This document shows positions 3,115-22,275 of a DNA stretch of 64,000 nt, one piece after another. Made by a program: the position numbers and the translations under genes. This DNA is from Pseudomonadota bacterium (GTDB taxonomy: Bacteria > UBA10199 > 2-02-FULL-44-16 > JAAZCA01): assembly GCA_043798915.1 (NCBI GenBank), contig JAZDOG010000020.1, positions 1-64,000 on the forward strand, read 5' to 3'. The notes under the pieces were generated by a model. That model did not search any database, had not been told where the DNA came from, and saw only the letters and a program-made list of their open reading frames with translations. Numbering within the stretch: position 1 is the stretch's first letter; every line of letters begins with the position of its first letter.

Positions 3115-4854
3115 TCAGGCGTCGCACGGCGCTTCCCCCTGTCCCGCAAAGAGATCGATGAAACGGGGAGTTCTGATCGCCTCGCTTATGCCGTCGATGA
3201 TCATCCTGTCCGGGTTTGAAAAATAGCACACGACGTCCATCTCCTCGACCGCCGAGAGCCGGTGGGAGACGGTGATCACCGTCGAATCCCTGAAGCGCTC
3301 TTTGATGTTTTTTAATATGCGCCGTTCGCTTGCCGAGTCCATCGAGGACATGGCTTCGTCGAGGATCAATATCTTCGGCTGTTTGATGAGGACCCTCGCG
3401 ATCGCGATCTTCTGCTTCTGTCCCTCGGAGAGGCGGCAGCCGCCCTCGCCGACGACCGTCGCGCAGCCGCGGGGGAGGCGTTTGGCGAAATCCTCCACGC
3501 CGGAAAGCCTCGCTGCTTCCCGGACGTCCTCCTCCGTGGCATCCTGACGGCCGTATCGGATGTTGTTTTCGATGCTGTCGTTCCAGAGCAGCGGTTCTTG
3601 AAGGGCCATGCCGATCCCGCCCCGCAGAGATGAAAAGGTGAGGTCTTTGAGATTCTGGCCGTCGATGAAGACGCCGCCCGCCCACGGCTCGTGCATCCTC
3701 AGGAACATCATCAGGATCGTCGTCTTCCCGCAGCCGGAGGGACCGACCAGGGCGATATGGCCGCCGCCCTCGATCTCGAAGCTGACGTCTTTGATGGCAG
3801 GGTCGCCCGGCCTGTATCCGAAGCTGACGTTTCGAAAGGCCAGCGTTCCTCTCTTGAACGTCGCCGGCCTGGCATCCGCCGCTTCGATGACGACGGAATC
3901 GTCATCGAGGATATCCGCCACCCTCCGGCATGACACGAGTCCCTCAATCGTCGATTGGAACAGGGAAACGACATTGCCATGCAGCCCCACGAGCTGCCGC
4001 AGATAGACCATGATGGCGGTGAGTGCTCCCAGCGTCATCTCGCCGTGGATAACCAGATAGCCTCCATAGAGGCCGATCAGGCCGTTCGCCAGAAGCGTTA
4101 TGCCTTGCGCCGAGACGCTCTGGGCCAGCGCAATTTTTGTGTTCCTCATCTCGACCGACATGCTCTCCAGCAGCAGGCCGAGGTATTTTTTTGTGCTCGA
4201 CGTTTCCCTGCCGAAGGCCTTGATGACCTTCATGTTCGAAAATGTCTCTTCCAGGAATATCAGTATCTTTTGCGACAGCTCGTTGAAATATTGCCAGATG
4301 AGTTTCAGCCTCTTCCTCATCCAGAACGACGGCAGATACAGGAAGAATGAGAGGCCCACCGCCAGCATCGCCATCTTCCAGTTGAGAGAGAAGACGATCG
4401 CGGTGATGAACAGGGCCCTGGGGATGAGGGCCAGCATCTGCGGCGGGGAGTCTGTTACAAAATTTGCCACGTTGGCGATGTCGTGGCGAACACTATAGAG
4501 ATTTTCGCCGGTGGACCTTGCCTGAAACCAGCCGAAGGAAAATCTCTGGAGGCAGTCAAAGACCTTCTTGTTGAGGTCAAAACCCACCGACAGCCTTACG
4601 GTTTTTTTCAGAAGCTGCGCCGCCGCGCCGGAAAGGCTCGTGGCTGCAAAGATTCCCCCGCCCAGGAGGGCCAGGACGACGACGGTCTTGAAATCCTTCC
4701 CAAGAATTCCATCATCGACGGCCATCTTTGTCAGATAGGGGTTGATAAGGCTCATGAGGGCGCCGGCGCCGCTCAGGACCAGTATGGAAAACCACTTCCC
4801 GCGATATGGGAGGATGAGCCTGGAAAATCTGAAGAAGAGCTTTGCGCTCGTCAT
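3115..4854 (-). CDS. ABC exporter, fused transmembrane and ATP-binding domains
   Basis: TM helices, Walker A GPSGCGKTT, signature LSEGQKQK, Walker B ILILDE; start at 4854 overlaps the upstream stop (ATGA); no C39 peptidase domain. Confidence 0.9.
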   Translation of the reverse strand: MTSAKLFFRFSRLILPYRGKWFSILVLSGAGALMSLINPYLTKMAVDDGILGKDFKTVVVLALLGGGIFAATSLSGAAAQLLKKTVRLSVGFDLNKKVFDCLQRFSFGWFQARSTGENLYSVRHDIANVANFVTDSPPQMLALIPRALFITAIVFSLNWKMAMLAVGLSFFLYLPSFWMRKRLKLIWQYFNELSQKILIFLEETFSNMKVIKAFGRETSSTKKYLGLLLESMSVEMRNTKIALAQSVSAQGITLLANGLIGLYGGYLVIHGEMTLGALTAIMVYLRQLVGLHGNVVSLFQSTIEGLVSCRRVADILDDDSVVIEAADARPATFKRGTLAFRNVSFGYRPGDPAIKDVSFEIEGGGHIALVGPSGCGKTTILMMFLRMHEPWAGGVFIDGQNLKDLTFSSLRGGIGMALQEPLLWNDSIENNIRYGRQDATEEDVREAARLSGVEDFAKRLPRGCATVVGEGGCRLSEGQKQKIAIARVLIKQPKILILDEAMSSMDSASERRILKNIKERFRDSTVITVSHRLSAVEEMDVVCYFSNPDRMIIDGISEAIRTPRFIDLFAGQGEAPCDA

Positions 4855-5891
4855 AGCAGCTCGCGGCCGGCCTCGGCATTCGCCAGATCGCAGAAATACT
4901 CCACGGGGGCGTCCATGCGGCCAGTTTCCAGAAAGGCGATCCCCGGGCATATCCGGCAGCGATCCCGCACGGCGCAGCCGCGGCATTTTGAATCTGGAGC
5001 GATTTCCGCGTTTCTGTGGCGCGAAAATGCTTCGAGCGCCGCGCCGAGCCCCGTTTCGAGGAGGCGAAAAGAAGGTTCCCTGATCAGATGGCAGAAGAAG
5101 GCCTTTCCATAAGGGTCGACGTTGACGCCGCCGCCTTTTCCCCCCTGACATCGGAAGAGGGACTCGCTATGATTCCTCCTGCCATCCTCAGGGCAGGGCC
5201 GTTTTTCGGCCTTCCCTCTGAGACTCAAAATTTCGGCCGGGGAAATCCTCAAGCCGCAAGGATGGGCGTCGCCGTTGAGCCGGCAAAAGAGTCTGGTCGA
5301 AAAGCCATGCGGAACGCCTGCCTTCTTTGCGAATGAGCGTATCCCTTCGATCTCCGCAAGATTGTCCTTCGTGACCTGCGTCTTGAGTTTCAGGGGGAGC
5401 CCTGCCCCGGCGGCCAGCTCGATGCCGCGCATCGCCTTTTCAAAAGAACCCCTCTTCTGCGATATCCTTTCATACAGCGCCCCGGTGACGGCGTTGAGCG
5501 TGATCTCGATCGCAAATGGCGGGTTCTTTTTGAGAAACCCGGCCATCTCCTCGTCCATCCGGTATCCGTTGGTGAAGATCGTGATGATGAAGCCCCTCCT
5601 CTTCGCAAAGGAATATATCTCCCGGAAATCCCCGCGCGTGAGGGGGTCGCCGCCGGTGAAACAGACCCAGAGGACTCCGGCGCGCCCCATCTCCTTGAGG
5701 ACGGCCTTCACCCCTTCCGTGCATAATTCCTTTGCGGTCGAGGCTGCGTTGTTGTGGCAATCGGCGAAGCAGTAATTGCAGTGGTAGTCGCAGCCGAAGG
5801 TCAGCTCGTATTGGCAGACACTCGGGCATCTCCTCGAGCTATTCTCGTGGTGTGCGCGGCGGCTGAATGTCTTGTACAAAATTTTCTTCAT
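4851..5891 (-). CDS. radical SAM/SPASM domain protein (RiPP maturase 3)
   Basis: CDYHCNYC motif, FTGGDP, TNG; SPASM cysteines FRC...FFC...CRGCAVRDRCRICPG...YFC. Confidence 0.9.
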   Translation of the reverse strand: MKKILYKTFSRRAHHENSSRRCPSVCQYELTFGCDYHCNYCFADCHNNAASTAKELCTEGVKAVLKEMGRAGVLWVCFTGGDPLTRGDFREIYSFAKRRGFIITIFTNGYRMDEEMAGFLKKNPPFAIEITLNAVTGALYERISQKRGSFEKAMRGIELAAGAGLPLKLKTQVTKDNLAEIEGIRSFAKKAGVPHGFSTRLFCRLNGDAHPCGLRISPAEILSLRGKAEKRPCPEDGRRNHSESLFRCQGGKGGGVNVDPYGKAFFCHLIREPSFRLLETGLGAALEAFSRHRNAEIAPDSKCRGCAVRDRCRICPGIAFLETGRMDAPVEYFCDLANAEAGRELL

Positions 5892-6790
5892 ACCCTCCTG
5901 ACAAACTCGATGACCCTCTTGTCCTTGACGAACCCGAGCCGGTAGCAGGGGAGGCGCTCCACCAGCTCATGGCAGAAGGAAACGGTTTTTTCGAGCCCGC
6001 ACTTGTCCCAGAAGGGAGGGAAGATGGCCGGAAACAGCATGTTGAAGGATTCGCCGGGGGCGGGCCTTCTCACCGTGTTTTTTCTTGCGGGATGGATGAA
6101 AAAGACCTTGTCGATCGGCGCTGACATTCGCAACATGGGGTAGTCGTTGTAGCTCCCGCGCCATGGTGAATTGTGCATCCGGTAGCCGCCGCCTTCCCTG
6201 CGAACGATGACCCGGTCATCGTTGAGTATCTTTGCGCCGCTGTTCTCTCTCCAAATCCTGGCCGTCGTGCTCTTTCCGCTTTGGGATTTTCCGGCGAAAA
6301 TCACGCCGCCGCAAATGGCGTCTCTGAGCGCTGCGGCATGGGCGATTATGCCGATGTCTCTCTGCGCCATATAGTTGATCAGGAGGACCTGCAGGAAATT
6401 ACAAACGACCTCACCTACAGTCCATTGGGGTATTTTGCCTTTGGACACCACGTGCGCCGTGGCCCTGTCACAGGCCTCATTGACGAAGGCGACCTGGCGG
6501 CGCGCCCTGTAAATATATGAATGATCCTTTTTCCCCCACCTCCAGTCTTCGTCGCCGCTCTCAAAGCGCCGCGTGATGAACAGGGATTCCACGCCGCGGA
6601 CCGCCGGCCTTCTCCTGGCCGCCTTCACGTCAATATAAATGTGCGGTTGTCCGTTCCCTTCGTAAAAGTAATGAGGTGGTTGATAGCCTGTCAAGCCTTC
6701 TATTTTCGGCTTGCTCTTGAGCCGGAGCTCGCAGTCGCCCTGCATGGAGACGATCAGACCGGCGATCTTCAATTTAATTCCCGTTTTCAT
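5888..6790 (-). CDS. HprK-related kinase (ScmC/PadeK-like)
   Basis: HAAA, Walker A GKSQSGKST and ILNDDR motifs in HPr-kinase order. Confidence 0.8.
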   Translation of the reverse strand: MKTGIKLKIAGLIVSMQGDCELRLKSKPKIEGLTGYQPPHYFYEGNGQPHIYIDVKAARRRPAVRGVESLFITRRFESGDEDWRWGKKDHSYIYRARRQVAFVNEACDRATAHVVSKGKIPQWTVGEVVCNFLQVLLINYMAQRDIGIIAHAAALRDAICGGVIFAGKSQSGKSTTARIWRENSGAKILNDDRVIVRREGGGYRMHNSPWRGSYNDYPMLRMSAPIDKVFFIHPARKNTVRRPAPGESFNMLFPAIFPPFWDKCGLEKTVSFCHELVERLPCYRLGFVKDKRVIEFVRRV

Positions 6791-7883
6791 ATCGCCGCAT
6801 CCTTTTCAGGGCGCGCTCCCGGCTTGCCGGGTCGCAGGCGGAGAAATCCTTCGCGTGCAGCCAGCCCATTGCCGGGCACCGTTTGCAATAAGGCTCAAGC
6901 CTGCATCGGCTGCACCCGCAGCCTTTGCTTCGCTCCGCATCCCTGGTCAGTTTTCTCAGCCTCATCCAGCCGCGGCGGAAACGCTTTCCAAGGATGTCAT
7001 ATCTCGGGTAATCGATCAACACGCACATCTTGAGTTTGCCGTCAGGGGTAATCGCCGCCTGGCGTTCGCCCGCGCCGCAACGGAAGAGCTTTGCGGGCCT
7101 CTTTCTATGAGAGATGTCATTGCGAGGAGCGAAGCGACGTGGCAATCCCGTGCTGACCACTGTTTCAAGGGGATCGCCACGTCGCCCTGCGGGTTCCTCG
7201 CGATGACAGCCGGGTTCGGAAACATTCCCATCAAGGGAGAGGGAACCCCTGTATTTATACGGCTCCATGGATCCATCCAGTCGCGGCGAAAGGGTGTCGT
7301 CGAGCCGGTGGAGCGCGCCCAGAGAAGAGGCGAAGGCGCGCACGTCATCTATTTCAATTTCATTTTCCTTCAAGAGGCACGTTTTGAATCCGAGCTTCAC
7401 GCCTTTGCGGTGAAGGTTCTTCACGGCACTGAACACCTTCTCCCTCGCTCCCCTGACGCCGGCGATTTTTTCGAACGCCGTCCGGCTCATTGCCGGCAGC
7501 GTGATGTCGATCTTGTTCGGATTCAGGCGGGCGAACTCCCGGGCCGCTCGCGCATCTATCAGCGACCCGTTGGTGTAGAGGATGAGCTGAAAACCCCTCC
7601 GTTTCGCGTGCCACATGATATCGAAGATGTCCTCCCTGAGGAGCGGCTCTCCGCCGGTGAACCCCAGATAGAGACAGCCGGCATCGCGGAGCTGGTCCAG
7701 AAGGGAGAACACCTCTCCTGTCGAAAGCTCGGGCCGGCGCTTGAACCCTTCCGGCACGTAACAGTGCCCGCAGCGGAAGTTGCAGCGATAGGTGAGTTCG
7801 AACATCACCCGGAGCGGGATGCCCCTCCTCGCCGCGCCCTCGCGGAGGCGGGCGTGGAAGTTATGATACGATCGATGGATCAT
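6774..7883 (-). CDS. radical SAM/SPASM domain protein (RiPP maturase 2)
   Basis: CNFRCGHC, FTGGEP, YTNG; SPASM FRC...KMC...CSRCRLEPYCKRCP...AC; contains an in-frame palindromic insert. Confidence 0.9.
   Translation of the reverse strand: MIHRSYHNFHARLREGAARRGIPLRVMFELTYRCNFRCGHCYVPEGFKRRPELSTGEVFSLLDQLRDAGCLYLGFTGGEPLLREDIFDIMWHAKRRGFQLILYTNGSLIDARAAREFARLNPNKIDITLPAMSRTAFEKIAGVRGAREKVFSAVKNLHRKGVKLGFKTCLLKENEIEIDDVRAFASSLGALHRLDDTLSPRLDGSMEPYKYRGSLSLDGNVSEPGCHREEPAGRRGDPLETVVSTGLPRRFAPRNDISHRKRPAKLFRCGAGERQAAITPDGKLKMCVLIDYPRYDILGKRFRRGWMRLRKLTRDAERSKGCGCSRCRLEPYCKRCPAMGWLHAKDFSACDPASRERALKRMRRYENGN
7115..7208. repeat. palindromic element inside the rSAM coding sequence
   Basis: Nested inverted arms tgtcattgcgagga/tcctcgcgatgaca and gcgacgtggcaatccc/gggatcgccacgtcgc. 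Confidence 0.85.
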
Positions 7884-8958
7884 TCATGCGCCGGAACGCC
7901 TTCTCCGCCATCCCGCAATAATAGGCTGCAGGGGCCTCCTCGTCGCCGGTCTCCAGAAAAGATGTGGCCGGGCAGATGCCGCAGAGGGGCCTGAGCCGGC
8001 AGCTGCGGCATCTGGATTTCGTTTTGAATTTTTCCTTCAGGAGTTTCGGAAACTCCTCGTAGAAACCCTGCCGAAAGGGCACCTGCTTCAGATCGACGCC
8101 GAACCTCCTGGTCAGGGGGCACATCTTCAAAAAGCCAAAAGGGTCTATCGTGAACCCCGTCTTCCATTTCTCGCAATGATAAAGATGCTCCCTGTCCTTG
8201 TCCTTCGCCGGCCTGCGTGCCCTCTTCCCGGAGGGTGCCCCCTCACAATATTTTTTCCACATATCCTTATCCTGCCTCCTGACATCCTCGATCTCTTCGA
8301 ACGTGAGTCTCAATTTCGTCGGCGCGAGGTCGCCGTTGAGCCTCGGCAAGATCATGGGGTCGTACTGGAAGCGATGTTTTTTCCGGTCCGGCGCGCCGGG
8401 GAGCCCATCGGCGAACGCCTTGATCCTTCCGATCTGATGCTGGTTCTGTTTCATGCAGTTCGTCTTGATCATGAAGGGAATCTTTTCGTCGAAGAGCCTC
8501 CCGATGTTTCTCATCGTGCGCGCAAACGAGCCCTTCACCTGCGTGATCTCCTCGTAGACGTCCGCGGTGATGCCGTTGAGCGTTATCTCGACGGACTCCG
8601 GGGGGGAGGCGGCGAGATGGGAGATGATTCTTTCAGTCAGGGCATGCGCGCCGGTGTAGATGGTGACGATGAATCCCTTCCTCCTGGCGTAGTCGTAGAG
8701 CTCCAGGAAATCGGGCCTCACGAGGGGGTCGCCGCCGGTGAAGACGAGCCAGAGGCAGCCCTCCTCGCGGAGCCCATCGAGGATCTCTTTCCAGCCTTTG
8801 GCGGGGAGCTCCCGTTTTCTGTCCTCGCTGCCCTTGCAGAAGCAATGTATGCAGTTGAGGTCGCAGCTGTAGGTCAAACTGATATATCCCTTGAGCGGGG
8901 CGCGCTTCTTCTTGCGGTGTACCCAATCGCAAAAATAGACATGGCTGCGGTTCTTCAT
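7861..8958 (-). CDS. radical SAM/SPASM domain protein (RiPP maturase 1)
   Basis: CDLNCIHC, FTGGDP; SPASM YHC...KMC...CRSCRLRPLCGICP...YYC; GGAG RBS before ATG 8958. Confidence 0.9.
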   Translation of the reverse strand: MKNRSHVYFCDWVHRKKKRAPLKGYISLTYSCDLNCIHCFCKGSEDRKRELPAKGWKEILDGLREEGCLWLVFTGGDPLVRPDFLELYDYARRKGFIVTIYTGAHALTERIISHLAASPPESVEITLNGITADVYEEITQVKGSFARTMRNIGRLFDEKIPFMIKTNCMKQNQHQIGRIKAFADGLPGAPDRKKHRFQYDPMILPRLNGDLAPTKLRLTFEEIEDVRRQDKDMWKKYCEGAPSGKRARRPAKDKDREHLYHCEKWKTGFTIDPFGFLKMCPLTRRFGVDLKQVPFRQGFYEEFPKLLKEKFKTKSRCRSCRLRPLCGICPATSFLETGDEEAPAAYYCGMAEKAFRRMNDPSIVS

Positions 8959-9006
8959 CAGAGACTCCGGGAAGAGCAATACGGAAGGTCAATGCCTTGG
9001 TAAGGC

Positions 9007-9210
9007 TCAGCTAGTTGCAGCATACCAGACGGGTTCTACACACATACCTATCGCCGTAAACTTCTCGTAGGGCGTCCAGCAAGAGGAGCTTTCGTTCCAG
9101 TATTGACCCCCGTAAACTGGGTCGCTCATACAGTTGCATTCCAGCACTGCCTGCTCGGGGTTGAGCTCCACGCGGGTGACCACCGGCCTGAATTTCGGTT
9201 TCTTGGGCAT
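9007..9210 (-). CDS. putative RiPP precursor peptide (67 aa)
   Basis: Strong RBS aaagggggggagat-ATG; basic leader MPKKPKFRPVVTRVELNPEQAVL; core with 4 Cys, 3 Trp, 4 Tyr and C-terminal Ser; lies between the PqqD-family gene and the first rSAM gene. Confidence 0.85.
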   Translation of the reverse strand: MPKKPKFRPVVTRVELNPEQAVLECNCMSDPVYGGQYWNESSSCWTPYEKFTAIGMCVEPVWYAATS

Positions 9211-9245
9211 ATCTCCCCCCCCTTTTGCAGAACAACTATAATAAC

Positions 9246-9349
9246 TTCCCCTCCTTTGTAAGGAGGGGACAGGGGAGGTAGATCAGCATTGAAACAGCGG
9301 TCTACCCCACCCTGACCCTCCCCTTACAAAGGGGAGGGAAACGTCACTA
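9246..9349. repeat. REP-like quasi-palindromic element, copy 2 (inverted relative to copy 1)
   Basis: 102/104 identical to the reverse complement of 11-114; its end overlaps the PqqD-family stop codon. Confidence 0.9.
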
Positions 9350-9631
9350 AACCAGGACCGCCTTGATCTCCTTTAAGTCCTTCAGGAGTTTTTTCATCTC
9401 CCTCTCCACCTCTTTGGGCGCGGAGCCAAACTCCTTCATGACCTTCTTTCCGATCCCCCCGGCCGTCGTCTTTCCGTCGATCATCTCCCAGACCCGCGAG
9501 GCCGGTTTGTTGAGCGTGTAGATGCAATTGAGCTCTTCCGAGGTCTTGTAGATGGGCAGGAGGATTGTCTCATCGCCGATCACGCGCGAGACCACGTCCG
9601 GATTCCTGCGCAGTATGGCGCCTTCACGCAT
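9347..9631 (-). CDS. PqqD-family RiPP recognition element (RRE)
   Basis: 94 aa; VVSRVIGDETILLP...IYTLN..ASRVWEMIDGK...LLKDL pattern; AGGAGGGG RBS. Confidence 0.9.
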   Translation of the reverse strand: MREGAILRRNPDVVSRVIGDETILLPIYKTSEELNCIYTLNKPASRVWEMIDGKTTAGGIGKKVMKEFGSAPKEVEREMKKLLKDLKEIKAVLV

Positions 9632-9720: not shown

Positions 9721-10122
9721 TTAAGATTTTATCCATTGGTTCAGTCTGACCGCACCCCATATCCCAAGGCGGATCAGGGGGGCGAATACAACGATGGACC
9801 TGTTCACAAACCGATGCGCCCGGCTTGTCAGATTCACGACCGTGCCGTTCTTGAGGATTCCGACCACCTTTCCCAGACAGCGGTCCGGCGAGACGCATTC
9901 AGCGGTCCCGGATGTGTCGCCGCGCGCATAGAGGCGGTAGCCGCTGCCCTCTTTCGCCCTTCGAACGAGCCGGTGACAGACGAACTTCTCGCCGGCGCGG
10001 TACAGGATGATGTCCCCCACTTTCAGATCACCGATGGGGGCCTCTCTTATTATCAGGCGCTCGCCCTGCTTGATGAACGGCCACATGCTGAATCCGGCCG
10101 TATCGAAGAATGAAACCTCCAT
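9721..10122 (-). CDS. S24/S26-family (signal-peptidase-like) peptidase, candidate leader peptidase
   Basis: GFSMWPF (catalytic Ser), GDIILY, CHRL and ARGD motifs; no N-terminal TM anchor; AGGAG RBS. Confidence 0.85.
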   Translation of the reverse strand: MEVSFFDTAGFSMWPFIKQGERLIIREAPIGDLKVGDIILYRAGEKFVCHRLVRRAKEGSGYRLYARGDTSGTAECVSPDRCLGKVVGILKNGTVVNLTSRAHRFVNRSIVVFAPLIRLGIWGAVRLNQWIKS

Positions 10123-10165
10123 GGAAAATCTCCTGTTTCGGTATTGAATGGTGGTGGGATATATG

Positions 10166-10195
10166 CCTGACATCATGGACGTGTCAACTTCAGGA
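10166..10195 (+). repeat. 30-bp imperfect direct repeat, left copy
   Basis: cctgacatcatggacgtgtcaacttcagga, 26/30 identical to 12734-12763. Confidence 0.75.
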
Positions 10196-10450
10196 CATAG
10201 TGTGTGGGCGCGCCGGTTTGAAAAACCAGGTATTAAATTGTACGCACTTATAGCACTTTTTCAATATAACTACAAATTAGTTGATATAACCTCAATATTT
10301 GCGCTGTTATCACAAGTGAATTTGTGCAATGGTCTTTGTTGTTCTGTAAGTCACCACGATCTGGTATCTGTGCCTATACGGGTTGAGTTGTCACTTCCAT
10401 TGAAAGAGTGCTGAGCTGTTACGAAAGACGAAGAAAGGGGGGAAGGGGCT

Positions 10451-12685: not shown

Positions 12686-13780
12686 TTGGTGGATGGCTAT
12701 GCAGAAATAGGTTTTTACATTGATAATGAGATACCTGCCGTCATGGATCTGTCAACTTCAGGATGCGATTGGAACTCTGTCGTTGAACATGCCATCGAAA
12801 ACGGCACGGCGACGCTCCTGTTTTCCCAATTGGCCTCGAAAGGGTTTCATGGCATGCCGCCGGCGGTCGTAGACCGCTTGAGGAAAATTTACTTATCCAC
12901 GCTCATCAGCAACCGGAGGATGATGGCCGATGCGGCCCATGCCGTGCAGCTGCTCGAAAACGGCGGCGTCAAGACTGTGCTCATAAAGGGGATGGCGATG
13001 CTGGCGGACGTCTATGAGGACGCCGCGCTGCGCCGGACCTCGGACGCCGATATCCTCATCCATTTTGAAGACCTGGATAGAGCGAAGAAGATTCTCATGT
13101 CCGACGGCTTTGCCTGCGATCCCTTGGCCGACAAGTCGTCCTTTGCGAACGAGCTGGGTTTTGGAAGAAAAAACACAGTCTTCGTTGAGGTCAGATGGGA
13201 CATGTGTCATCACGACCGCTTCCGGTTCTGCAACCGCTTCAGCATGGGGGGCATCTTCACGGGCGCCGCCGCCGCCGATCTCAATGGCGCCGCCGTAAAG
13301 ATTCCCTCCCCGGAATATCAATTGCTCATCGCCGCCTTTCACCAATCGTTTGTCCACCATTTTGAAAAAAAGATGTGGCTGTATGATATCGTGGCGATCG
13401 CTGACCGCTACGGCAAGGACTTGAGCTGGGAGAGAGTCGTGCAGCTCTCAGAAACCTGCGGAATGCGGCGCGCCCTCGCGTACACGTTCCTTCGCGCGCG
13501 CCGGGAGTTCAATTTCAGCATGAAGCTTCCGCTGGAGATATCGCGCCTCCGGGTCCGCCTGCTGGATGCCTGCTCGCGCCGCCGTTACGGTTTTCTTGTG
13601 GAACTTCTCCTGCTGGACTGCCTGAAAGATCTCCTTCTCTATGCCGCGGGCGTCCTCTGGCCTTCCGACGGCTGGCTCAAACACCACTACCGGACTTCGT
13701 CGACCAGACCCTGGCGCTTTCTGCATCCCTTTCTGGTCGCAGCGGGCGCCATCAAAAAAATCCTCGGGATATGGAGTTGA
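12686..13780 (+). CDS. nucleotidyltransferase family protein (NTP_transf_5-like, as in lasso/RiPP loci)
   Basis: VLIKG..LADVY...LRRTSDADILI, VEVRW and WLYDI motifs; start uncertain (12686 or ATG 12743). Confidence 0.85.
   Translation: MVDGYAEIGFYIDNEIPAVMDLSTSGCDWNSVVEHAIENGTATLLFSQLASKGFHGMPPAVVDRLRKIYLSTLISNRRMMADAAHAVQLLENGGVKTVLIKGMAMLADVYEDAALRRTSDADILIHFEDLDRAKKILMSDGFACDPLADKSSFANELGFGRKNTVFVEVRWDMCHHDRFRFCNRFSMGGIFTGAAAADLNGAAVKIPSPEYQLLIAAFHQSFVHHFEKKMWLYDIVAIADRYGKDLSWERVVQLSETCGMRRALAYTFLRARREFNFSMKLPLEISRLRVRLLDACSRRRYGFLVELLLLDCLKDLLLYAAGVLWPSDGWLKHHYRTSSTRPWRFLHPFLVAAGAIKKILGIWS
12734..12763 (+). repeat. 30-bp imperfect direct repeat, right copy
   Basis: cctgccgtcatggatctgtcaacttcagga; spans the likely ATG (12743) of the nucleotidyltransferase gene. 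Confidence 0.75.
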
Positions 13781-13783
13781 TGC

Positions 13784-14404
13784 ATGCTATATCAAAGAAT
13801 ATTGAGAAACCTTGCGCAGCTGGCGCAGGGCAAAATCAAGGCGCGAAAAATCCCTTCGAAGATAACCAATTTTATTCTCAGCTATAGTGAATCGCTCAGG
13901 CAGATCAAGAGAAGCAGATTCGCTATCGACGGCGTGATATTCAGGCCCGTTGAACCAAATGACGGATCGCGCTACGCCGAGTTTTTGCGCAATTATTATT
14001 TTCAGGAAGACATGCCTTACACAGGCGAGGCGGTAGCGGTCCCACATTGCAATGCGGAATACTTTTATCACGTCGCCGTGTATCAAAACAAGATCGTAGG
14101 AGGGGTGGGGATGGGCAGAATCCCGTCTGACACCGTTGACCTTTGGCGTATGGGAGGGTTGTCTGTTTTGCGTGATTTGCGCGGATACGGGATTGGCGAA
14201 AGGTTGCTGAAAACAGCAATTTCTGCCGTCGGGGAGGGGGACGCCATCATATTTCTCAATGTGGATAAAAATAATATGCCGGCGGTGAAATTATATAAGA
14301 AAGCCGGGTTTCATATGGCCGGCGGGCGGGAAAAAACCGTGATAAAAGATATCGGATACGCGCCGGGGAAAATAAGCATGGTGTTGGGGCGCATCCTCAA
14401 TTGA
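13784..14404 (+). CDS. GNAT-family N-acetyltransferase
   Basis: LSV...LRGYGIGERLL motif A and NMPAVKLYKKAGF motif B. Confidence 0.9.
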   Translation: MLYQRILRNLAQLAQGKIKARKIPSKITNFILSYSESLRQIKRSRFAIDGVIFRPVEPNDGSRYAEFLRNYYFQEDMPYTGEAVAVPHCNAEYFYHVAVYQNKIVGGVGMGRIPSDTVDLWRMGGLSVLRDLRGYGIGERLLKTAISAVGEGDAIIFLNVDKNNMPAVKLYKKAGFHMAGGREKTVIKDIGYAPGKISMVLGRILN

Positions 14405-16397: not shown

Positions 16398-17255
16398 ATG
16401 AATATCAAAAAAGAAATATTCGATAAGCTCATCTGCTTAGGCTGCCATTCGAACGGATTGACCCTTTGCGCCGATTTCTCAATCCGGTGCGCCAAATGTT
16501 TGCGCACATATCCGATCGTGAACGGAGTGTATTCCTTTGTCCCGGAGGAAGCGGTTTCCTTCAGCGAAGTGCCGAAAGAGATACGCGGCAATTATATCAG
16601 GGTTAAGAGGGCAGCCTACTTCGACGAGTCATTCATCCAAAAATTATACACGCATTATCATCGCTATGCGGGAAAGATGAGGAGCTTGTATGGCGGCGAT
16701 GGATCAACGTTGGATATCGGGTTTGGGGCGGGCGAGCATTATGAATTCATCCGCCCTGACGAAAAAGACGGACGATCATTTATCGGAGCAGATCGCGACA
16801 GGTTCAAATTGGAATACTTTTGCAGAAATCATCAGGATGTTCCGGTGTTTCAGGCGGATGCACTCGACCTGCCGTTTTCGGATGGCAGTTTTGATGTGGT
16901 GCAGCTCTTGGCAACCATAGAACATTTTGATATAAAAGGCGTCAACAGGGTTATCTCTGAAAGCCTGAGGGTTTTGAAGGCGAACGGGATCCTGATCGTA
17001 TGTTATCCGGCGGAAGGCAGCCTGCTGCTGAAGTGCTGCCGAAAGATCATGGGGGTCATTTTAAAGTTCAAGTCGGATTATGACATGGTGAAAGATCTGG
17101 CGCATACGCATGCGCATTTATCTTCCGCCGCTGAAACAAGAAAAGCTTTGAAGAGCAACGGGCAATTAAAAAACGTCGATTCATCATTCTACTTTCTGTC
17201 AATTCCAAATTTGCATTTATCACTTTTTATCAATGAAGTTTATAGAAAGATATAG
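16398..17255 (+). CDS. class I SAM methyltransferase with Trm112-like N-terminus
   Basis: CLGC...CAKC..YPIVNGV; LDIGFGAG; DALDLPFSDGSFD. Confidence 0.85.
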   Translation: MNIKKEIFDKLICLGCHSNGLTLCADFSIRCAKCLRTYPIVNGVYSFVPEEAVSFSEVPKEIRGNYIRVKRAAYFDESFIQKLYTHYHRYAGKMRSLYGGDGSTLDIGFGAGEHYEFIRPDEKDGRSFIGADRDRFKLEYFCRNHQDVPVFQADALDLPFSDGSFDVVQLLATIEHFDIKGVNRVISESLRVLKANGILIVCYPAEGSLLLKCCRKIMGVILKFKSDYDMVKDLAHTHAHLSSAAETRKALKSNGQLKNVDSSFYFLSIPNLHLSLFINEVYRKI

Positions 17256-17274
17256 CCGCCTTTGCAGGTAAAAT

Positions 17275-18792
17275 ATGACAATGAATCGCAATAAAATATT
17301 GCTTGTTTATCCAAAGGTGGGGATGAGCGGTTCCTTTGCGTGTCATCTTCCTTTGAGCCTTCTCTATGCGGCGGCGGATTCCATCAAGGCTGGATTCGAG
17401 GTGGATATTGTCGATGTGAGGCTTTGTCCGCAGAAATGGAAGGAAGCCATCTCTGCGAAGATATCTTCCGGCACGATTTTGGCCGGGCTGAGCGTCATGA
17501 CGGGCACGCCGATAAAAAATGCCCTTGAGATCTCCAGGTGGATCAGGAGTTCTTATTCCCATGTGAAGGTTGTCTGGGGAGGGCCCCACGCCGCTTTCAA
17601 CGGCGCCGAGATTTTAAGGGAAAGGAGCATAGATTATGTCGTCAGCGGCTATGGTTCGCTGCCCCTGTCCAGGATTGCCAGGTTCCTGAGGGGCGACAAA
17701 GATGCATTGCAACTTGAGGACATATCCGGCCTGTCATATCGCAAAAACGGCTCTATCATGTCGGTGCCGAGGGAAAATAAATTTGAGCTGATCAATTATA
17801 AAGACATTCCATACCACCTTATAGAAAAAGACCTTGGCCGCTATGGCCAGCTGGACAACGGCGAGATCATTTTCCCAATGTATAGCGTGGTAGGCTGCCC
17901 GTATCACTGCGCATTTTGTTCTTCCCCGGCTCAGTATAGGGATTTTACAAACAAGTACGAACGCATTTCATCGCAGGAGGTGGTCGACCATATCGAATTT
18001 GTTAAAAACGGGTATGGCGCCGAATATATATATTTCATCGATGATGATTCGTTCGTCAATCTTGAACATGTGACAAAAATAATCGACGAGGTCAACAGCA
18101 GGGCGCTCAAGGTGCGCCTGGGTTTCAGGGGGGCCAGGATCGATGAGATCAAAAAAATGGATGACGAATATCTGGAAAAGCTGGTCGATGTCGGAACTGA
18201 CATCCTTCATGTCGGTGCTGAATCAGGCTCGCAAAGGATGCTCGATCTGATACGAAAGGATATCACCGTCGATGATATTATTTTCGTAAATAAAAAGATG
18301 GCGCGCCATAGCAGGATCGTTACCACATATAACTGGATAGTCGGGCTGCCGGGGGAGACGGAGGGCGATTTGCGCAAGACGAGGGAGCTGATCATGACAC
18401 TGCTGGGCGACAACCCGACTGCGATAATTGTCATGCCCAATAAATACCGCCCCTTGCCAGGAACAGAGCTGTATGAACACGCGTTGAGACACGGCTATAA
18501 AAAACCTGCCAGGCTGGAAGACTGGATCGACAGAGAGGCGGAGGGAAGCTGGCGGATGCCGTGGTATACAAAAGAGACGGCAAAGATGATAGATATGATG
18601 CAGGTGACTTCATTTTTTATAGACGACAAAATATTCAAGGTGCGGACAGGCAGGACATTGAAGTTTCTCCTGGCGCGCCTGGTCTCCTGGATATATGCCC
18701 CGATAGCCAGGTTGAGATTTAAGCATGGTTTCTCAGGGATGCTAGTTGAACACAAATTGTTCCAATGGTCGGTCTCCGCCTTCCGAAAATAA
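17275..18792 (+). CDS. cobalamin-binding radical SAM protein
   Basis: LPLSLLY, VVWGGPH B12-binding domain; GCPYHCAFC; IDDDSF; GAESGS; GLPGET. Confidence 0.9.
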   Translation: MTMNRNKILLVYPKVGMSGSFACHLPLSLLYAAADSIKAGFEVDIVDVRLCPQKWKEAISAKISSGTILAGLSVMTGTPIKNALEISRWIRSSYSHVKVVWGGPHAAFNGAEILRERSIDYVVSGYGSLPLSRIARFLRGDKDALQLEDISGLSYRKNGSIMSVPRENKFELINYKDIPYHLIEKDLGRYGQLDNGEIIFPMYSVVGCPYHCAFCSSPAQYRDFTNKYERISSQEVVDHIEFVKNGYGAEYIYFIDDDSFVNLEHVTKIIDEVNSRALKVRLGFRGARIDEIKKMDDEYLEKLVDVGTDILHVGAESGSQRMLDLIRKDITVDDIIFVNKKMARHSRIVTTYNWIVGLPGETEGDLRKTRELIMTLLGDNPTAIIVMPNKYRPLPGTELYEHALRHGYKKPARLEDWIDREAEGSWRMPWYTKETAKMIDMMQVTSFFIDDKIFKVRTGRTLKFLLARLVSWIYAPIARLRFKHGFSGMLVEHKLFQWSVSAFRK

Positions 18793-20841: not shown

Positions 20842-22275
20842 ATGAAGGTTTTTGTGGCAGGCGGGGCGGGTTTTATCGGGAGCAACCTGATCGCGCGATT
20901 GCTCAGCGGCTATTCATTATTTGCGGCCGTCATTTTGGCGGCAGTCGTGCTTCGCCTGTATTGTCTCGGCGAAAGGACCTTGGGGGTGGACGAAGCGACC
21001 GCTTTGTTGACTGCCTCTCCTTCCGTCAAGGATATATGGCTGAACTCGTTTTATCAGCACCTGATATCTCAAAGTCACTTGCCAGCTTACTTCTGGCTGC
21101 TGCATTTCTGGATGCTCCTCGGAAAAAGCGAAATTGTCGTGAGGCTGCCCTCGGTCATAATGGGGCTGGCTGCATTTCCTCTGATGTACTCAACAATGGT
21201 AAAGCTGTATGATAGCAAAGCCGCAAAAATAGCATGTGTGCTCCTTGCGTTTTCATGGCTCCACATCCGATATTCGCAGGAAGCAAGGATGTATTCCTTG
21301 ATGGTGTTCCTCAGCCTTTTGTCCTTCTATTTCTTCGTGAGAGCAATTCAGCAAAATCAGCGCCGCCATTGGCTGGCCTACGTCTTCTTTACCGCAATCA
21401 ATTTGTTTACGCACATCTTTTGCCTCATCCTGCCTTTAACTCAACTCATTTATCTCGTATTTTTTTATAAGGGGAATAAGAAAAAGATCGCGCCATATGC
21501 CATCCTGACTTTGCTCACTTGTCTTTTAATCATGTTTGTTATCCACAACTCATATCTGATGGCTATGACGGCTAATGTCAGAGCCGCACGAGACATTCAT
21601 TTCATGCCGTCCGTGCTGGCAGGTCTCAGCTCCGGCCATCCAAGCCTTCCGTTGGGATATATTTCAATTCCGCTCTTCTTGGCGATTCTCTGTAAACCCA
21701 TTTATCGGGCGATCAGAGAGCGCCAGACCGAATCCATCCTGCTCATCGTTCATTTTGCGATTCCGTTTTTTACCATCGCAGCATTGTCCATGCTCTCAAC
21801 GAAAATTTTCATCCGCTATGTCATATTTCTGCTTCCGTTCTATCTCATGCTCGTTGCCATGGCTATCTCGAGCATAAAAACGGTCATGCTTGGAAGGGCG
21901 CTCGTCATTCTGATCATTCTGCTCAATGTTGTTCAGCTTCATCATCATTATCGTTATGAAGAAGAGCCCTGGAGAGAGGTGGGACGTTTCCTTGAGCAAA
22001 GAACAGCGCCAGATGATGCGATTGTCGTCATCCCGGGGTATTACTGGATCGCATTGGATTATTATTACAAGGGGGGCAACGAGAAGCTGGGGCTTATAAC
22101 GGGGGCGGGTGGGAATCTTGATTCGATTGAGCGGTTGCATAGAAAAAAGAATGTATGGCTTATTTGCGACCCGTCTCTAAATGATTACTGTGTAAATTTA
22201 GTTGGCAAACTTTCGCAAAGCCCTGCGGCGCAATCGGAATTTCCCAGCGTGTTTTATGTCAGACGCTCTGAGTGA
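20842..22275 (+). CDS. GT-C (ArnT/PMT, GT39-like) glycosyltransferase with epimerase-like first 21 residues
   Basis: LGVDEA, P.YFWLL, RLPSV, YSQEARMY motifs; many TM helices; starts MKVFVAGGAGFIGSNLIARLL. Confidence 0.85.
   Translation: MKVFVAGGAGFIGSNLIARLLSGYSLFAAVILAAVVLRLYCLGERTLGVDEATALLTASPSVKDIWLNSFYQHLISQSHLPAYFWLLHFWMLLGKSEIVVRLPSVIMGLAAFPLMYSTMVKLYDSKAAKIACVLLAFSWLHIRYSQEARMYSLMVFLSLLSFYFFVRAIQQNQRRHWLAYVFFTAINLFTHIFCLILPLTQLIYLVFFYKGNKKKIAPYAILTLLTCLLIMFVIHNSYLMAMTANVRAARDIHFMPSVLAGLSSGHPSLPLGYISIPLFLAILCKPIYRAIRERQTESILLIVHFAIPFFTIAALSMLSTKIFIRYVIFLLPFYLMLVAMAISSIKTVMLGRALVILIILLNVVQLHHHYRYEEEPWREVGRFLEQRTAPDDAIVVIPGYYWIALDYYYKGGNEKLGLITGAGGNLDSIERLHRKKNVWLICDPSLNDYCVNLVGKLSQSPAAQSEFPSVFYVRRSE

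Follow-up and report, generated by a model that had tools for sequence, protein, structure and literature searches.

A predicted radical-SAM RiPP precursor family with an invariant leader and a hypervariable, serine-ending core, encoded beside PqqD, three radical-SAM enzymes and an HPr-kinase-like protein

The operon and its precursor gene

The window analysed here, a 64,000-nt stretch of contig JAZDOG010000020.1 (assembly GCA_043798915.1), contains one minus-strand operon encoding an S24/S26-type peptidase, a PqqD-family protein, a candidate precursor peptide, three radical-SAM enzymes, a protein of the HPr-kinase/PEPCK fold and an ABC exporter (Table 1). The operon genes overlap or abut on the same strand, and the gap upstream of the precursor gene spans 136 nt and holds a palindromic repeat of approximately 100 nt. 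This repeat has 75 matches in its own genome, many of them at contig ends, with near-identical copies between unrelated flanks; it folds with a z-score of -4.08 and matches no Rfam family at the gathering score. A dedicated attenuator or regulatory hairpin between pqqD and the precursor gene was considered and rejected, because the element is repeated genome-wide. A sigma-70-like match upstream of the S24/S26-type peptidase gene is a possible operon promoter. Regarding the gene starts, that of PqqD (also aligned with its homologues, 14 members in all) was chosen by homology, radical-SAM enzyme A starts with TTG at 8979 (alternative ATG at 8958), and the likely start of the ABC exporter at 4854 overlaps the stop of radical-SAM enzyme C. 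For the exporter, the NCBIfam models of the HlyB/MsbA type all fall below cut-off, and none of the genes scores above the cut-off of a curated NCBIfam model.

Table 1. Features of the operon and its surroundings in the window
Feature	Position	Strand	Basis
ABC exporter, fused permease and ATPase, without peptidase domain	3115..4854	minus	PF00664, PF00005
Radical-SAM enzyme C, SPASM-like C-terminal Cys motif	4851..5891	minus	PF04055, 3.1e-21
P-loop protein of the HPr-kinase/PEPCK fold, a candidate to phosphorylate the C-terminal Ser	5888..6790	minus	motifs, predicted fold
Radical-SAM enzyme B, SPASM-like C-terminal Cys motif	6774..7883	minus	PF04055, 3.1e-25
Radical-SAM enzyme A, SPASM-like C-terminal Cys motif	7861..8979	minus	PF04055, 1.3e-18
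Precursor peptide gene	9007..9210	minus	67 aa and stop
Core, residues 24-67: C25/C27, hypervariable body with C44 and C57, Ser67	9010..9141	minus	conservation
Leader, residues 1-23 (MPKKPKFRPVVTRVELNPEQAVL)	9142..9210	minus	ten invariant positions
Palindromic repeat between pqqD and precursor, ~100 nt	9246..9346		75 genome matches
PqqD-family protein (standalone RRE), 94 aa from Met at 9631	9347..9631	minus	PF05402
S24/S26-type serine peptidase, candidate leader peptidase	9721..10176	minus	TIGR02228, PF00717, both sub-cut-off
Sigma-70-like promoter match, possible operon promoter	10237..10264	minus	TTGAAA-16-TACAAT, 10/12 positions, consensus match only
PF14907 nucleotidyltransferase, probable accessory gene	12686..13780	plus	PF14907, 3.6e-41

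The ATG at 9210 opens a frame that ends at 9007 and translates as MPKKPKFRPVVTRVELNPEQAVLECNCMSDPVYGGQYWNESSSCWTPYEKFTAIGMCVEPVWYAATS, a peptide with Cys at positions 25, 27, 44 and 57, Trp at positions 38, 45 and 62, and four Tyr. A sequence-only reading had claimed a 67-residue frame with these residues, and the minus-strand translation matches it exactly; the location it gave was right, and the strand had to be corrected to minus. Where the same reading saw a very strong ribosome-binding site, the purine run AAAAGGGGGGGGAGAT lies immediately 5' of the ATG. This ATG is favoured over an in-frame TTG at 9235 because relatives share the same Met (M[PSG][RK]KPKF...). In a protein atlas, the precursor matches only clusters of "hypothetical protein", with scores of at most 0.89 and structural TM values of at most 0.40, which serve as leads only.

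A large family with a conserved leader and a variable core

A family profile made from the window peptide and three relatives was searched against 1.84 billion proteins and recovered 776 representative proteins with E ≤ 0.001, of which 518 reach E ≤ 1e-10. The representatives are sequence clusters at 50% identity, and the family comprises at least 776 such clusters, mostly in uncultured Omnitrophota. A recovery on this scale places the reading frame far beyond chance. That it could be an accidental open frame or a mis-called gene would agree with its shortness and with the outcome of the domain scans, in which it matched 0 Pfam and 0 NCBIfam families, but this view is refuted by the 776 representatives together with the conserved start, C-terminus and neighbours, and its probability is negligible.

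Among the best 150 of the 776, a near-invariant leader (KPKFxPxITRVKLNPEQAVL) is followed by xCxC and then by a hypervariable core, and the leader motif is present in 150 of 151 proteins among the best relatives. Alignment of 91 precursors revealed a mean column identity of 25% overall, and ten leader positions (M1, F7, P9, L16, N17, P18, E19, Q20, A21 and L23) are invariant in all 91. The combination of a conserved leader and a variable core, set as a test beforehand, is therefore present in an extreme form. Homologues also lie beside RRE and radical-SAM genes: PqqD is found in 19 of 28 related loci and all three radical-SAM types in 14 of the 28, with the kinase-like gene accompanying them in 12 of those 14. 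Enzyme genes are absent from the fetched flanks in 9 of the 28 loci. Among the loci that lack the full set, several lie on short contigs or in genomes that carry the enzyme genes elsewhere. The claim of a precursor peptide whose leader is conserved and whose core varies, adjoined by PqqD (RRE) and radical-SAM genes, is upheld by these comparisons.

Some genomes carry several unlinked precursor genes and only one enzyme locus; one genome (G061) combines six precursor loci with a single kinase-like gene. One locus (L031) has five tandem precursor genes. The genome of the window has a single precursor copy, a second having been rejected since the other match reached only E = 0.65. The system is patchy among relatives, occurring in 2 of 60 and absent from all 12 of the same family. 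These distributions bear on another explanation, that the peptide, like PqqA or MftA, yields an intracellular cofactor or is a small regulatory protein, and does not give rise to an exported natural product. The PQQ and mycofactocin pathways also combine PqqD with SPASM radical-SAM enzymes, and MftC and PqqE are among the top NCBIfam matches, all below cut-off. Cofactor precursors have conserved cores, however, in contrast to the hypervariable core found here; moreover, several divergent copies exist in some genomes, an exporter and a peptidase lie within the operon, and the patchy occurrence suits an accessory trait. The cofactor explanation is considered very improbable, and it is held with high confidence that the peptide is a real RiPP precursor served by this gene set.

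A putative boundary between leader and core was placed at residues 23/24, where conservation drops; the sequence-only reading had proposed a cleavage site near QAVL/ECNC. Within the leader, the invariant F7 and P9 of "KFRP" fit a recognition motif. The presumed partner, PqqD, matches PF05402 at E = 6.3e-10, above the Pfam cut-off. Co-folding of PqqD with leader residues 1-40 scored 0.51 against 0.21 for the best control, which is rated as weak support: 116 of 157 solved complexes and 2 of 215 mismatched pairs attain the mark applied, and scores of 0.60 or less came from only 18 of the 157 solved complexes and from both of the mismatches. Contact agreement among the runs was at least 96%, with a partner pLDDT of at least 54. 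Because RRE-leader complexes have already been solved, the score may reflect likeness. In one lineage (G061; L014, L020, L022 and L024), PqqD, a linker and the precursor are fused in frame. The joined frame is open for 101-190 codons, and each 100 codons of the linker contain 7-13 stops in the other two frames; a TTA Leu codon replaces the usual precursor Met codon in L022. Independent metagenome proteins (P0254, P0256 and P0257) carry the same fusion. These natural PqqD-precursor fusions speak for a functional connection. In the proposed pathway, the standalone PqqD would bind the leader through F7, P9 and the LNPEQAVL stretch and present the core to the enzymes.

The family cores are 40-75 residues long and contain Cys, and their fixed points are an initial xCxC, then one or two more Cys, and Ser as the last residue. 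The xCxC motif occurs in 150 of 150 relatives, and Cys conservation is limited to C25, C27 and one later Cys, which is C44 in the 91-precursor alignment. Of the four core Cys named by the sequence-only reading, these three are accordingly confirmed as conserved and the remaining one is without conservation; the Trp and Tyr residues on its list fall within the hypervariable part and are unconserved. From C3 to the last Cys, the preferred spacing is 13 residues (22/96). The position right after CxC, the sole aromatic position that is conserved, is Y, W or F in 131 of 148 cores and otherwise H, S, I, P, A, V or L, and the next conserved position is Gly in 105 of 148. The window peptide departs from the family at both, having Met in place of the aromatic residue and Pro in place of Gly.

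At the other end of the core, the last residue is Ser in 142, Thr in 5 and another residue in 3 of 150 relatives, and these three exceptions look truncated or frameshifted. Among 39 precursors from the 28 loci, the C-terminal residue is Ser in 35, Thr in 3 and Leu in 1. Ser makes up only 12.9% of core residues, implying that the terminal Ser is selected and not compositional; Ser and Thr together account for 22%. The last three residues follow a small-x-small pattern, with A, T, S or G at -3 in 122 of 148 and S or T at -1 in 148 of 148 after filtering. The C-terminal Ser did not figure in the sequence-only reading, nor did the HPr-kinase-like gene, the S24/S26 peptidase and the PF14907 nucleotidyltransferase.

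Predicted maturation of the core

All three radical-SAM enzymes contain CX3CX2C and a C-terminal CX2CX5CX2C, with seven C-terminal Cys in a SPASM-like pattern, the SPASM motif being CX2CX5CX3C. The Pfam SPASM model gave no match at E ≤ 0.01 in these proteins, and NCBIfam cut-offs are unmatched as well, so that the enzyme assignments stand at the level of the superfamily and of motifs. The nearest solved chains to enzyme A are SkfB, followed by PqqE and by 5v1q, which we take to be the Lys-Trp cross-linking enzyme SuiB. The three enzymes would install cross-links on the invariant Cys, and sulfur-to-carbon thioethers of the sactipeptide/ranthipeptide kind are the most likely product. That the product bears Cys-based radical-SAM cross-links is proposed tentatively, at slightly below even confidence. 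The sequence-only reading had further suggested that each of the enzymes may form a different link. A competing and rather unlikely explanation is that these enzymes make no Cys thioethers at all, but form C-C or C-O links at the aromatic residue following CxC, or catalyze epimerisation or methylation, with the Cys serving in disulfides or metal binding. It draws on the frequency of that aromatic residue and of the Gly after it, on the separate conservation of three enzymes, which suggests three different reactions, on the third rank of 5v1q among the solved chains, and on the preferred 13-residue spacing, which would suit a disulfide loop. Against it, the aromatic position is Met in the window peptide and one of several non-aromatic residues in others; the two leading Cys are invariant, and the nearest solved chain, SkfB, forms thioethers. 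The usual layout of sactipeptides, with N-terminal Cys donors and variable acceptors, also speaks for thioethers as the preferred reading.

The kinase-like protein gave 0 sequence matches to solved structures at E ≤ 1, and its predicted fold was therefore used. The model (pLDDT 86.1) retrieved PEPCK at 9e-7 and HprK/P (1kkl_C) at 4.3e-5 in Foldseek. The NCBIfam models ScmC (E = 3.4e-7; 29.9 bits vs a cut-off of 125) and HprK_rel_B (E = 5.5e-5; 22.4 vs 200) match below cut-off, and the Walker A motif (GKSxxGKST) and LNDDR are invariant or nearly so. PF27840 is precomputed on relatives of this protein and may bear on the claim of novelty. An HPr-kinase homologue, predicted to be a kinase, and a Ser-ending precursor are thus both present, the last residue being Ser or Thr in 147 of 150 relatives. 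A PF14907 nucleotidyltransferase gene lies 2.5 kb off on the opposite strand, outside the operon in the window and with two unrelated genes between. In 7 related loci, a member of the same family occurs in the flanks that were fetched; in one (L023) it forms a fusion with the S24 peptidase, and in another (L010) the two are fused in the opposite domain order.

In the lasso peptide pseudomycoidin, the D158A/D159A substitution in the kinase PsmK abolishes C-terminal Ser phosphorylation, and the nucleotidyltransferase PsmN subsequently attaches hexose to the phosphate (PMC6993621). Lasso nucleotidyltransferases sometimes occur as fusions with the B2 leader peptidase (PMC8498205). By analogy, the C-terminal Ser, the kinase-like protein, the peptidase and PF14907 resemble the apparatus for terminal Ser phosphorylation and phosphoglycosylation of paeninodin/pseudomycoidin-type lasso peptides. 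The C-terminal Ser may be phosphorylated, a proposal given about even odds, and the PF14907 nucleotidyltransferase, where present, may extend the phosphate.

An unlikely alternative, though of some weight, is a RiPP precursor whose terminal Ser is not the target of the kinase-fold protein. This protein could then be an ATP-dependent scaffold or could activate another Ser or Thr of the S/T-rich core, and the terminal Ser would have a different role, such as recognition by one of the radical-SAM enzymes, by the exporter or by the peptidase, or the joining of another group via its carboxylate. Kinase and Ser are connected solely by analogy, the ScmC and HprK_rel_B scores are far under their cut-offs, PEPCK ranks above HprK/P in the fold search, the small-x-small C-terminus could be a signal to the peptidase or the exporter, and the cores are rich in Ser and Thr. 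However, only Thr replaces the terminal Ser (5/150), and a hydroxyl group is therefore indicated; the Walker A and Asp-Asp motifs are conserved, as expected of an active phosphotransferase; and in lasso peptides, the HPr-kinase homologue, the nucleotidyltransferase and the C-terminal Ser have been tied to terminal phosphorylation by experiment.

The S24/S26-type peptidase matches TIGR02228 (archaeal-type signal peptidase I) with 40.9 bits vs a cut-off of 51.85 and PF00717 with 22.4 bits vs 23.3, and it gave 0 sequence matches to solved structures at E ≤ 1. S26 archaeal/ER signal peptidases I have the Ser in an SMxP box, the His in an HR box and the Asp in a GD box, and the peptidase has the corresponding residues as a GxSMxP Ser, an HR His and a GD Asp, each without variation across 11 of 11 orthologues. 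S26 peptidases follow a small-residue rule at the cleavage site; cleavage before C25 would fit this rule poorly because residue 24 (-1) is Glu here. In the proposed pathway, the peptidase would remove the leader near L23/C25 and the ABC transporter would export the product. That the S24/S26 protein is the leader peptidase is given about even odds.

Relation to known systems and implications

One of the closest known layouts is that of the SynChlorMet cassette (SCM; TIGR04248-TIGR04251), which likewise combines PqqD (ScmD), an HPr-kinase-like protein (ScmC) and several PqqE-like radical-SAM/SPASM enzymes (ScmE and ScmF). The SCM models match weakly, and all below cut-off: in addition to ScmC, ScmD reaches 18.7 vs 100, ScmE at best 74.6 vs 400 and ScmF at best 69.7 vs 400. 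In contrast to the two radical-SAM enzymes of SCM, the present operon has three, together with an S24/S26 peptidase, an ABC exporter and an identified precursor family. To our knowledge, the precursor of the SCM cassette is described as unknown. Paeninodin/pseudomycoidin lasso peptides share a Ser-ending precursor, an HPr-kinase homologue, a standalone RRE (B1/PqqD), an ABC exporter and an uncharacterised nucleotidyltransferase, for which fusion with the leader peptidase is known. The present operon differs in having three radical-SAM enzymes, a serine peptidase and far longer cores, and in that phosphorylation here is only predicted; in Pfam and NCBIfam scans, a lasso cyclase (Asn-synthetase-like) and a B2 cysteine protease were absent among the operon proteins.

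Sactipeptide and ranthipeptide maturases (SkfB, AlbA, StsB and the SCIFF maturases) are similar with respect to the extra C-terminal Cys clusters, the Cys at the core start, the leader dependence and the RRE. Their RRE is an N-terminal domain, whereas it is a separate protein here; one precursor is accompanied by three conserved enzymes here, and the thioethers are predicted. The StsB model scores at most 81 vs 625 and AlbA at most 51.8 vs 850, with matches spanning the radical-SAM core only (approximately residues 25-190), and the GeoRSP radical-SAM model gives at best 77.7 bits vs a cut-off of 400. In its invariant leader, hypervariable cores, one enzyme set and many dispersed precursors, the family recalls the prochlorosin libraries, although radical-SAM enzymes take the place of the lanthipeptide synthetase and the window's own genome is single-copy.

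In the literature searched, whose scope had subscription-journal radical-SAM RiPP atlases outside it, there was no description of the precursor family, no occurrence of the leader string LNPEQAVL or of the term "SynChlorMet", and no paper joining an HPr kinase with radical SAM, a precursor peptide and PqqD, or with SPASM RiPPs. The consulted portions of the Omnitrophota literature on radical-SAM RiPPs are general BGC surveys and say nothing on the precursor family; what is listed for PF14907 concerns phosphonates, and what is listed for precursor peptides of Omnitrophica is unrelated. Within these bounds, we read the precursor system as a previously undescribed radical-SAM RiPP. The explanation as a whole, namely a RiPP precursor of a large uncharacterised family with the proposed pathway of PqqD, radical-SAM enzymes, kinase, peptidase and exporter, is considered likely. 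The fully joined form is offered with clearly less than even confidence: a new RiPP class in which three SPASM-type enzymes link CxC to the body, the kinase-fold enzyme and PF14907 phosphorylate or phosphoglycosylate the terminal Ser, a homologue of ER/archaeal-type signal peptidases cuts the leader, some Omnitrophota use one enzyme set for dispersed precursors, and one lineage has fused PqqD to its substrate.

The chemistry of Omnitrophota, which are uncultured, is little known; with its sharply defined leader and compact enzyme set, the system could be rebuilt in E. coli. Peptide-library engineering looks for just such an invariant leader joined to a hypervariable core, and the PqqD-precursor fusions provide a natural test of leader recognition in cis. 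The precursor family also suggests what type of substrate the distantly related SCM cassette may act on. The system pairs predicted radical-SAM cross-linking with an apparent C-terminal Ser phosphorylation module that has so far come from lasso peptides; if confirmed, this module would be a portable tailoring unit common to different RiPP classes.

The precursor family

The ATG-started open reading frame of the minus strand (9210 to 9007) translates to the same 67 residues as the peptide quoted in the sequence-only reading, and a purine run (AAAAGGGGGGGGAGAT) lies immediately 5′ of its ATG. An alternative in-frame TTG at 9235 would give a 74-aa product; the relatives share the first Met of the 67-residue version (M[PSG][RK]KPKF), which places the start at 9210. 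A word-indexed search yielded three relatives, and the resulting four-sequence profile, run against 1.84 billion representatives, matched 776 of them with E≤0.001, of which 518 also pass E≤1e-10, with lengths of 38–102 aa among the matches listed.

The best 150 of the 776 (including the related proteins P0001–P0003), together with P0004 from the word-indexed search, formed a set of 151. PE[QE]A[VIL]L occurs in 150 of these, the exception reading LNSEQAVL, and xCxC follows in all 150 motif carriers. In 150 sequences of this set, the last residue is Ser (142), Thr (5), Ala (2) or Gln (1), and the three not ending in Ser or Thr are short or frameshifted in appearance. The core contains two Cys in 2 sequences, three in 51, four in 80, five in 14 and six in 3. 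Across 91 aligned precursors, M1, F7, P9, L16, N17, P18, E19, Q20, A21, L23, C25, C27 and C44 are invariant, and mean column identity is 25%. After removal of three sequences (≤55 aa or without a Ser/Thr end), 148 cores remained, in which the residue directly after CxC is Tyr in 88, Trp in 23 and Phe in 20, with Gly three positions further on in 105. The median gap from C27 to the next Cys is 22 residues; in the 96 cores with two or more Cys beyond the CxC pair, the first and last of these most commonly stand at a distance of 13 (22 of 96). As Ser makes up only 12.9% of core residues, its presence at the terminus of 95% of sequences is not compositional. The window peptide itself is atypical in having Met for the aromatic residue after CxC and Pro for the Gly; its position 24 is Glu, a position occupied by Ala, Ser or Thr in 111 of the 148 members.

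These patterns support the earlier identification of a leader/core precursor. The Trp and Tyr residues listed with it are not conserved, and that list omits the most informative features, which are the terminal Ser together with the kinase-like protein, peptidase and nucleotidyltransferase. A sub-family was also seen (L031:8210-12119 and loci L027–L030) in which the leader reads ...ITRVKLNPEQAVLSCC, CC replaces CxC and the cores are shorter; at L031, five such genes are interleaved with nitroreductase and GGDEF genes in 4 kb, with no enzyme genes within the flanks.

The operon, its enzymes and possible leader recognition

Features of the operon, its surroundings and related fusions
Feature	Coordinates	Strand	Basis or remark
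S24/S26-type peptidase	10176-9721	-	TIGR02228 40.9 bits (cut-off 51.85); PF00717 22.4 (cut-off 23.3)
PqqD	9631-9347	-	PF05402, E 6.3e-10
Precursor	9210-9007	-	ORF and relatives
Radical-SAM enzyme A	8979-7861	-	PF04055
Radical-SAM enzyme B	7883-6774	-	PF04055
Kinase-like protein	6790-5888	-	weak matches: ScmC 3.4e-7, HprK_rel_B 5.5e-5
Radical-SAM enzyme C	5891-4851	-	PF04055
ABC exporter	4854-3115	-	PF00664 and PF00005
PF14907 nucleotidyltransferase	12686-13780	+	2.5 kb from the operon, beyond two unrelated genes
GNAT	13784-14404	+	adjoins the PF14907 gene, same side
PqqD-linker-precursor fusions	L014:7151-7990, L022:8868-9623, L024:9536-10258, L020:3393-3950		in-frame, genome G061

From enzyme A to the ABC exporter, successive genes overlap by 4 to 23 bases, and a sigma-70-like match, by consensus only, is found at 10264-10237 (-). 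No model reached its curated NCBIfam cut-off for any operon protein. Directly downstream of the exporter are AbiEi antitoxin-like (PF09952) and AbiEii toxin-like (PF08843) genes (784-2654, -), and an AbiEii gene also adjoins the precursor at L025. On the other side, genes for a class-I methyltransferase and for a B12-binding radical-SAM protein are neighbours, and a PMT_2 membrane glycosyltransferase gene follows at some distance (16398-18792 and 20842-22275, both +); this stretch may form a modification locus of its own. An approximately 100-nt palindromic repeat (TTCCCCTCCTTTGTAAGGAGGGGA ... GGGGAGGGAAACGTCAC) occurs at 9246-9346, between pqqD and the precursor (fold z = -4.08), at 14-114, and at L033–L039. 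It has 75 matches in its own 2.3-Mb genome, many at contig ends, with copies 82-99% identical and flanks unrelated; no Rfam family reached threshold. The repeat resembles MITE or REP elements and probably breaks the assembly.

Regarding the radical-SAM enzymes, A, B and C each contain CX3CX2C around residue 35 and CX2CX5CX2C towards the C-terminus. Among orthologues above 200 bits, the former is kept in 13/14 (A), 16/16 (B) and 14/14 (C), and the latter in 14/14, 13/16 and 13/14, at least one missing case (L005) lying at a contig end. Two further Cys upstream and one downstream give seven auxiliary Cys on reading the sequence, which we take to be the SPASM layout save that CX2C replaces the CX3C of the canonical motif; the Pfam SPASM model gave no match at E≤0.01 in the operon proteins. 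Among solved chains, enzyme A is closest to SkfB (2.3e-9), PqqE (1.1e-7) and 5v1q (4.7e-7). Enzymes A, B and C all lack an N-terminal RRE domain, consistent with PqqD being a separate protein.

Regarding leader recognition, the PqqD frame in genome G061 is open through a Lys/Glu/Arg-rich linker into leader and core at L014, L020, L022, L024 and partly L017. Upstream of the leader, this frame is open for 101-190 codons, and the other two frames have 7-13 stops in the last 100 linker codons. At L022 the usual precursor Met codon is TTA, so that there is no separate start there, and P0253 and P0258 likewise have Leu at this position. The same architecture appears in gene calls from other metagenomes (P0254, 261 aa; P0256, 289 aa; P0257, 214 aa, PF05402 precomputed), all three belonging to the 6 hits obtained on scoring 8000 candidates. 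Since the PqqD parts are all very similar, the fusions are one lineage, of marine Omnitrophota. We know of no described RiPP with an RRE fused to its own substrate. Co-folding of the window PqqD with leader residues 1-40, both as alignments, weakly supports the pairing (0.51 versus 0.21 for the best control): the mark is reached by 116/157 solved complexes and 2/215 mismatches, and scores ≤0.60 include only 18/157 solved complexes and both mismatches. The runs share at least 96% of contacts, with partner pLDDT of at least 54, and complexes similar to this one are already solved.

The kinase-like protein was modeled from 13 sequences (mean pLDDT 86.1, pTM 0.87). Foldseek placed PEP carboxykinases first (1oen, E 9.0e-7, TMq 0.43) and HprK/P 1kkl_C at rank 44 (E 4.3e-5, TMt 0.52); PEP carboxykinase and HprK/P have a common fold. 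Walker A residues G167, S169, G172, K173 and T175 are invariant in 13/13, as are D191 and R193 of LNDDR, and D192 and H211 are nearly so. All relatives are called 'hypothetical protein', mostly from Omnitrophota, with precomputed PF27840. In the peptidase, G28, S30, M31 and P33 (SMxP box), H68, R69 and D87 are kept in 11/11 orthologues, and a Ser-His-Asp arrangement is that of the archaeal/ER type of signal peptidase I. PF14907 genes are found in the flanks of L006, L007, L010, L011, L021 and L023. Fusions of the S24/S26 peptidase with PF14907 occur in both domain orders (L023:12333-14012, S24 first; L010:2432-4384, PF14907 first), and at L021:6211-8268 the fusion partner of the peptidase is a PMT_2 membrane glycosyltransferase domain.

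Distribution of related loci

A scan with one genome per species gave 29 loci, 23 labeled Candidatus Omnitrophota and the others Verrucomicrobiota, Elusimicrobia, delta proteobacterium, Planctomycetales, NPL-UPA2 and WOR-3. A strict motif search recovered 39 precursors in 28 loci (L026 failed the motif), ending in Ser (35), Thr (3) or Leu (1). When stop-to-stop frames of the loci were searched by phmmer with the window's proteins, all three radical-SAM types, each with a separate best match to A, B or C, were found in 14/28 loci, 12 of which also carry the kinase-like gene; PqqD was found in 19/28. L007 and L008 are near-identical and hence not independent. Nine of the 28 have no enzyme genes within the flanks, among them L003, L004, L016, L017, L025, L029 and L031, of which L004 and L017 are contigs under 4 kb; the flanks of L027 hold only the peptidase and one radical-SAM gene. 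The orphan precursor at L003:9986-10261 (85% leader identity), on a 303-kb contig of genome G062, is flanked by birA-like and bioB-like genes within a biotin operon.

G061, with six precursor loci, carries its single kinase-like gene (E 1.3e-149) on a different contig, and G063, which contains the five tandem precursors of L031, has one elsewhere in the genome; none was found in genomes G062 and G064. These single genes away from the precursors suggest that one enzyme set can serve dispersed precursors. The window's own genome has one precursor copy. As matches occur in 2/60 of its relatives and in 0/12 of the same family, the system is an accessory, patchily distributed trait. A precursor match with an in-frame TGA in a same-order relative (G018:C45:1298-1483, -) could be a decayed copy, or its stop could be read through.

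Proposed pathway and relation to known systems

What the sequences show directly is the leader/core architecture and its invariant positions, the recurrence of the gene set, the preservation of the catalytic motifs, and the fusions; the pathway built on them here is a candidate. PqqD would bind the precursor leader, and A, B and C would cross-link the core via its invariant Cys. The likeliest radical-SAM product would be a thioether, given that Cys donors lie at the core N-terminus and that the closest solved enzyme is thioether-forming. The peptidase would remove the leader somewhere between L23 and C25, and the ABC transporter would export the product. At -1, Glu24 of the window peptide suits an S26 enzyme poorly, although most family members have Ala, Ser or Thr there. 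By analogy with the published PsmK/PsmN precedent (PMC6993621), the kinase-like protein would place a phosphate on the hydroxyl of the last residue, and PF14907 may build on it. In pseudomycoidin biosynthesis, the D158A/D159A change inactivates the kinase PsmK, and the uncharacterised nucleotidyltransferase PsmN attaches a hexose to that phosphate (PMC6993621); lasso nucleotidyltransferases of the PsmN kind are in some cases fused to the leader peptidase B2 (PMC8498205).

Among curated systems the SynChlorMet cassette, built from similar types of parts, comes closest; the operon misses each of the four SynChlorMet models by a wide margin and is therefore not a member. It is not a GeoRSP system either (77.7 against 400), and its enzymes do not fall into any recognised family of sactipeptide maturases, StsB and AlbA scoring far under their cut-offs. 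The operon has no cyclase or B2 protease and is thus not a lasso cluster. No description of the precursor family was found in the searchable literature; an earlier bioinformatic mention, for example in a subscription-journal atlas of radical-SAM RiPPs or with PF27840, may exist. The three elements of the pseudomycoidin-type module appear to recur here, whereas the peptidase and the predicted core chemistry are different. By this analogy, the operon appears to work like a radical-SAM RiPP pathway joined to a lasso-style C-terminal tailoring module.
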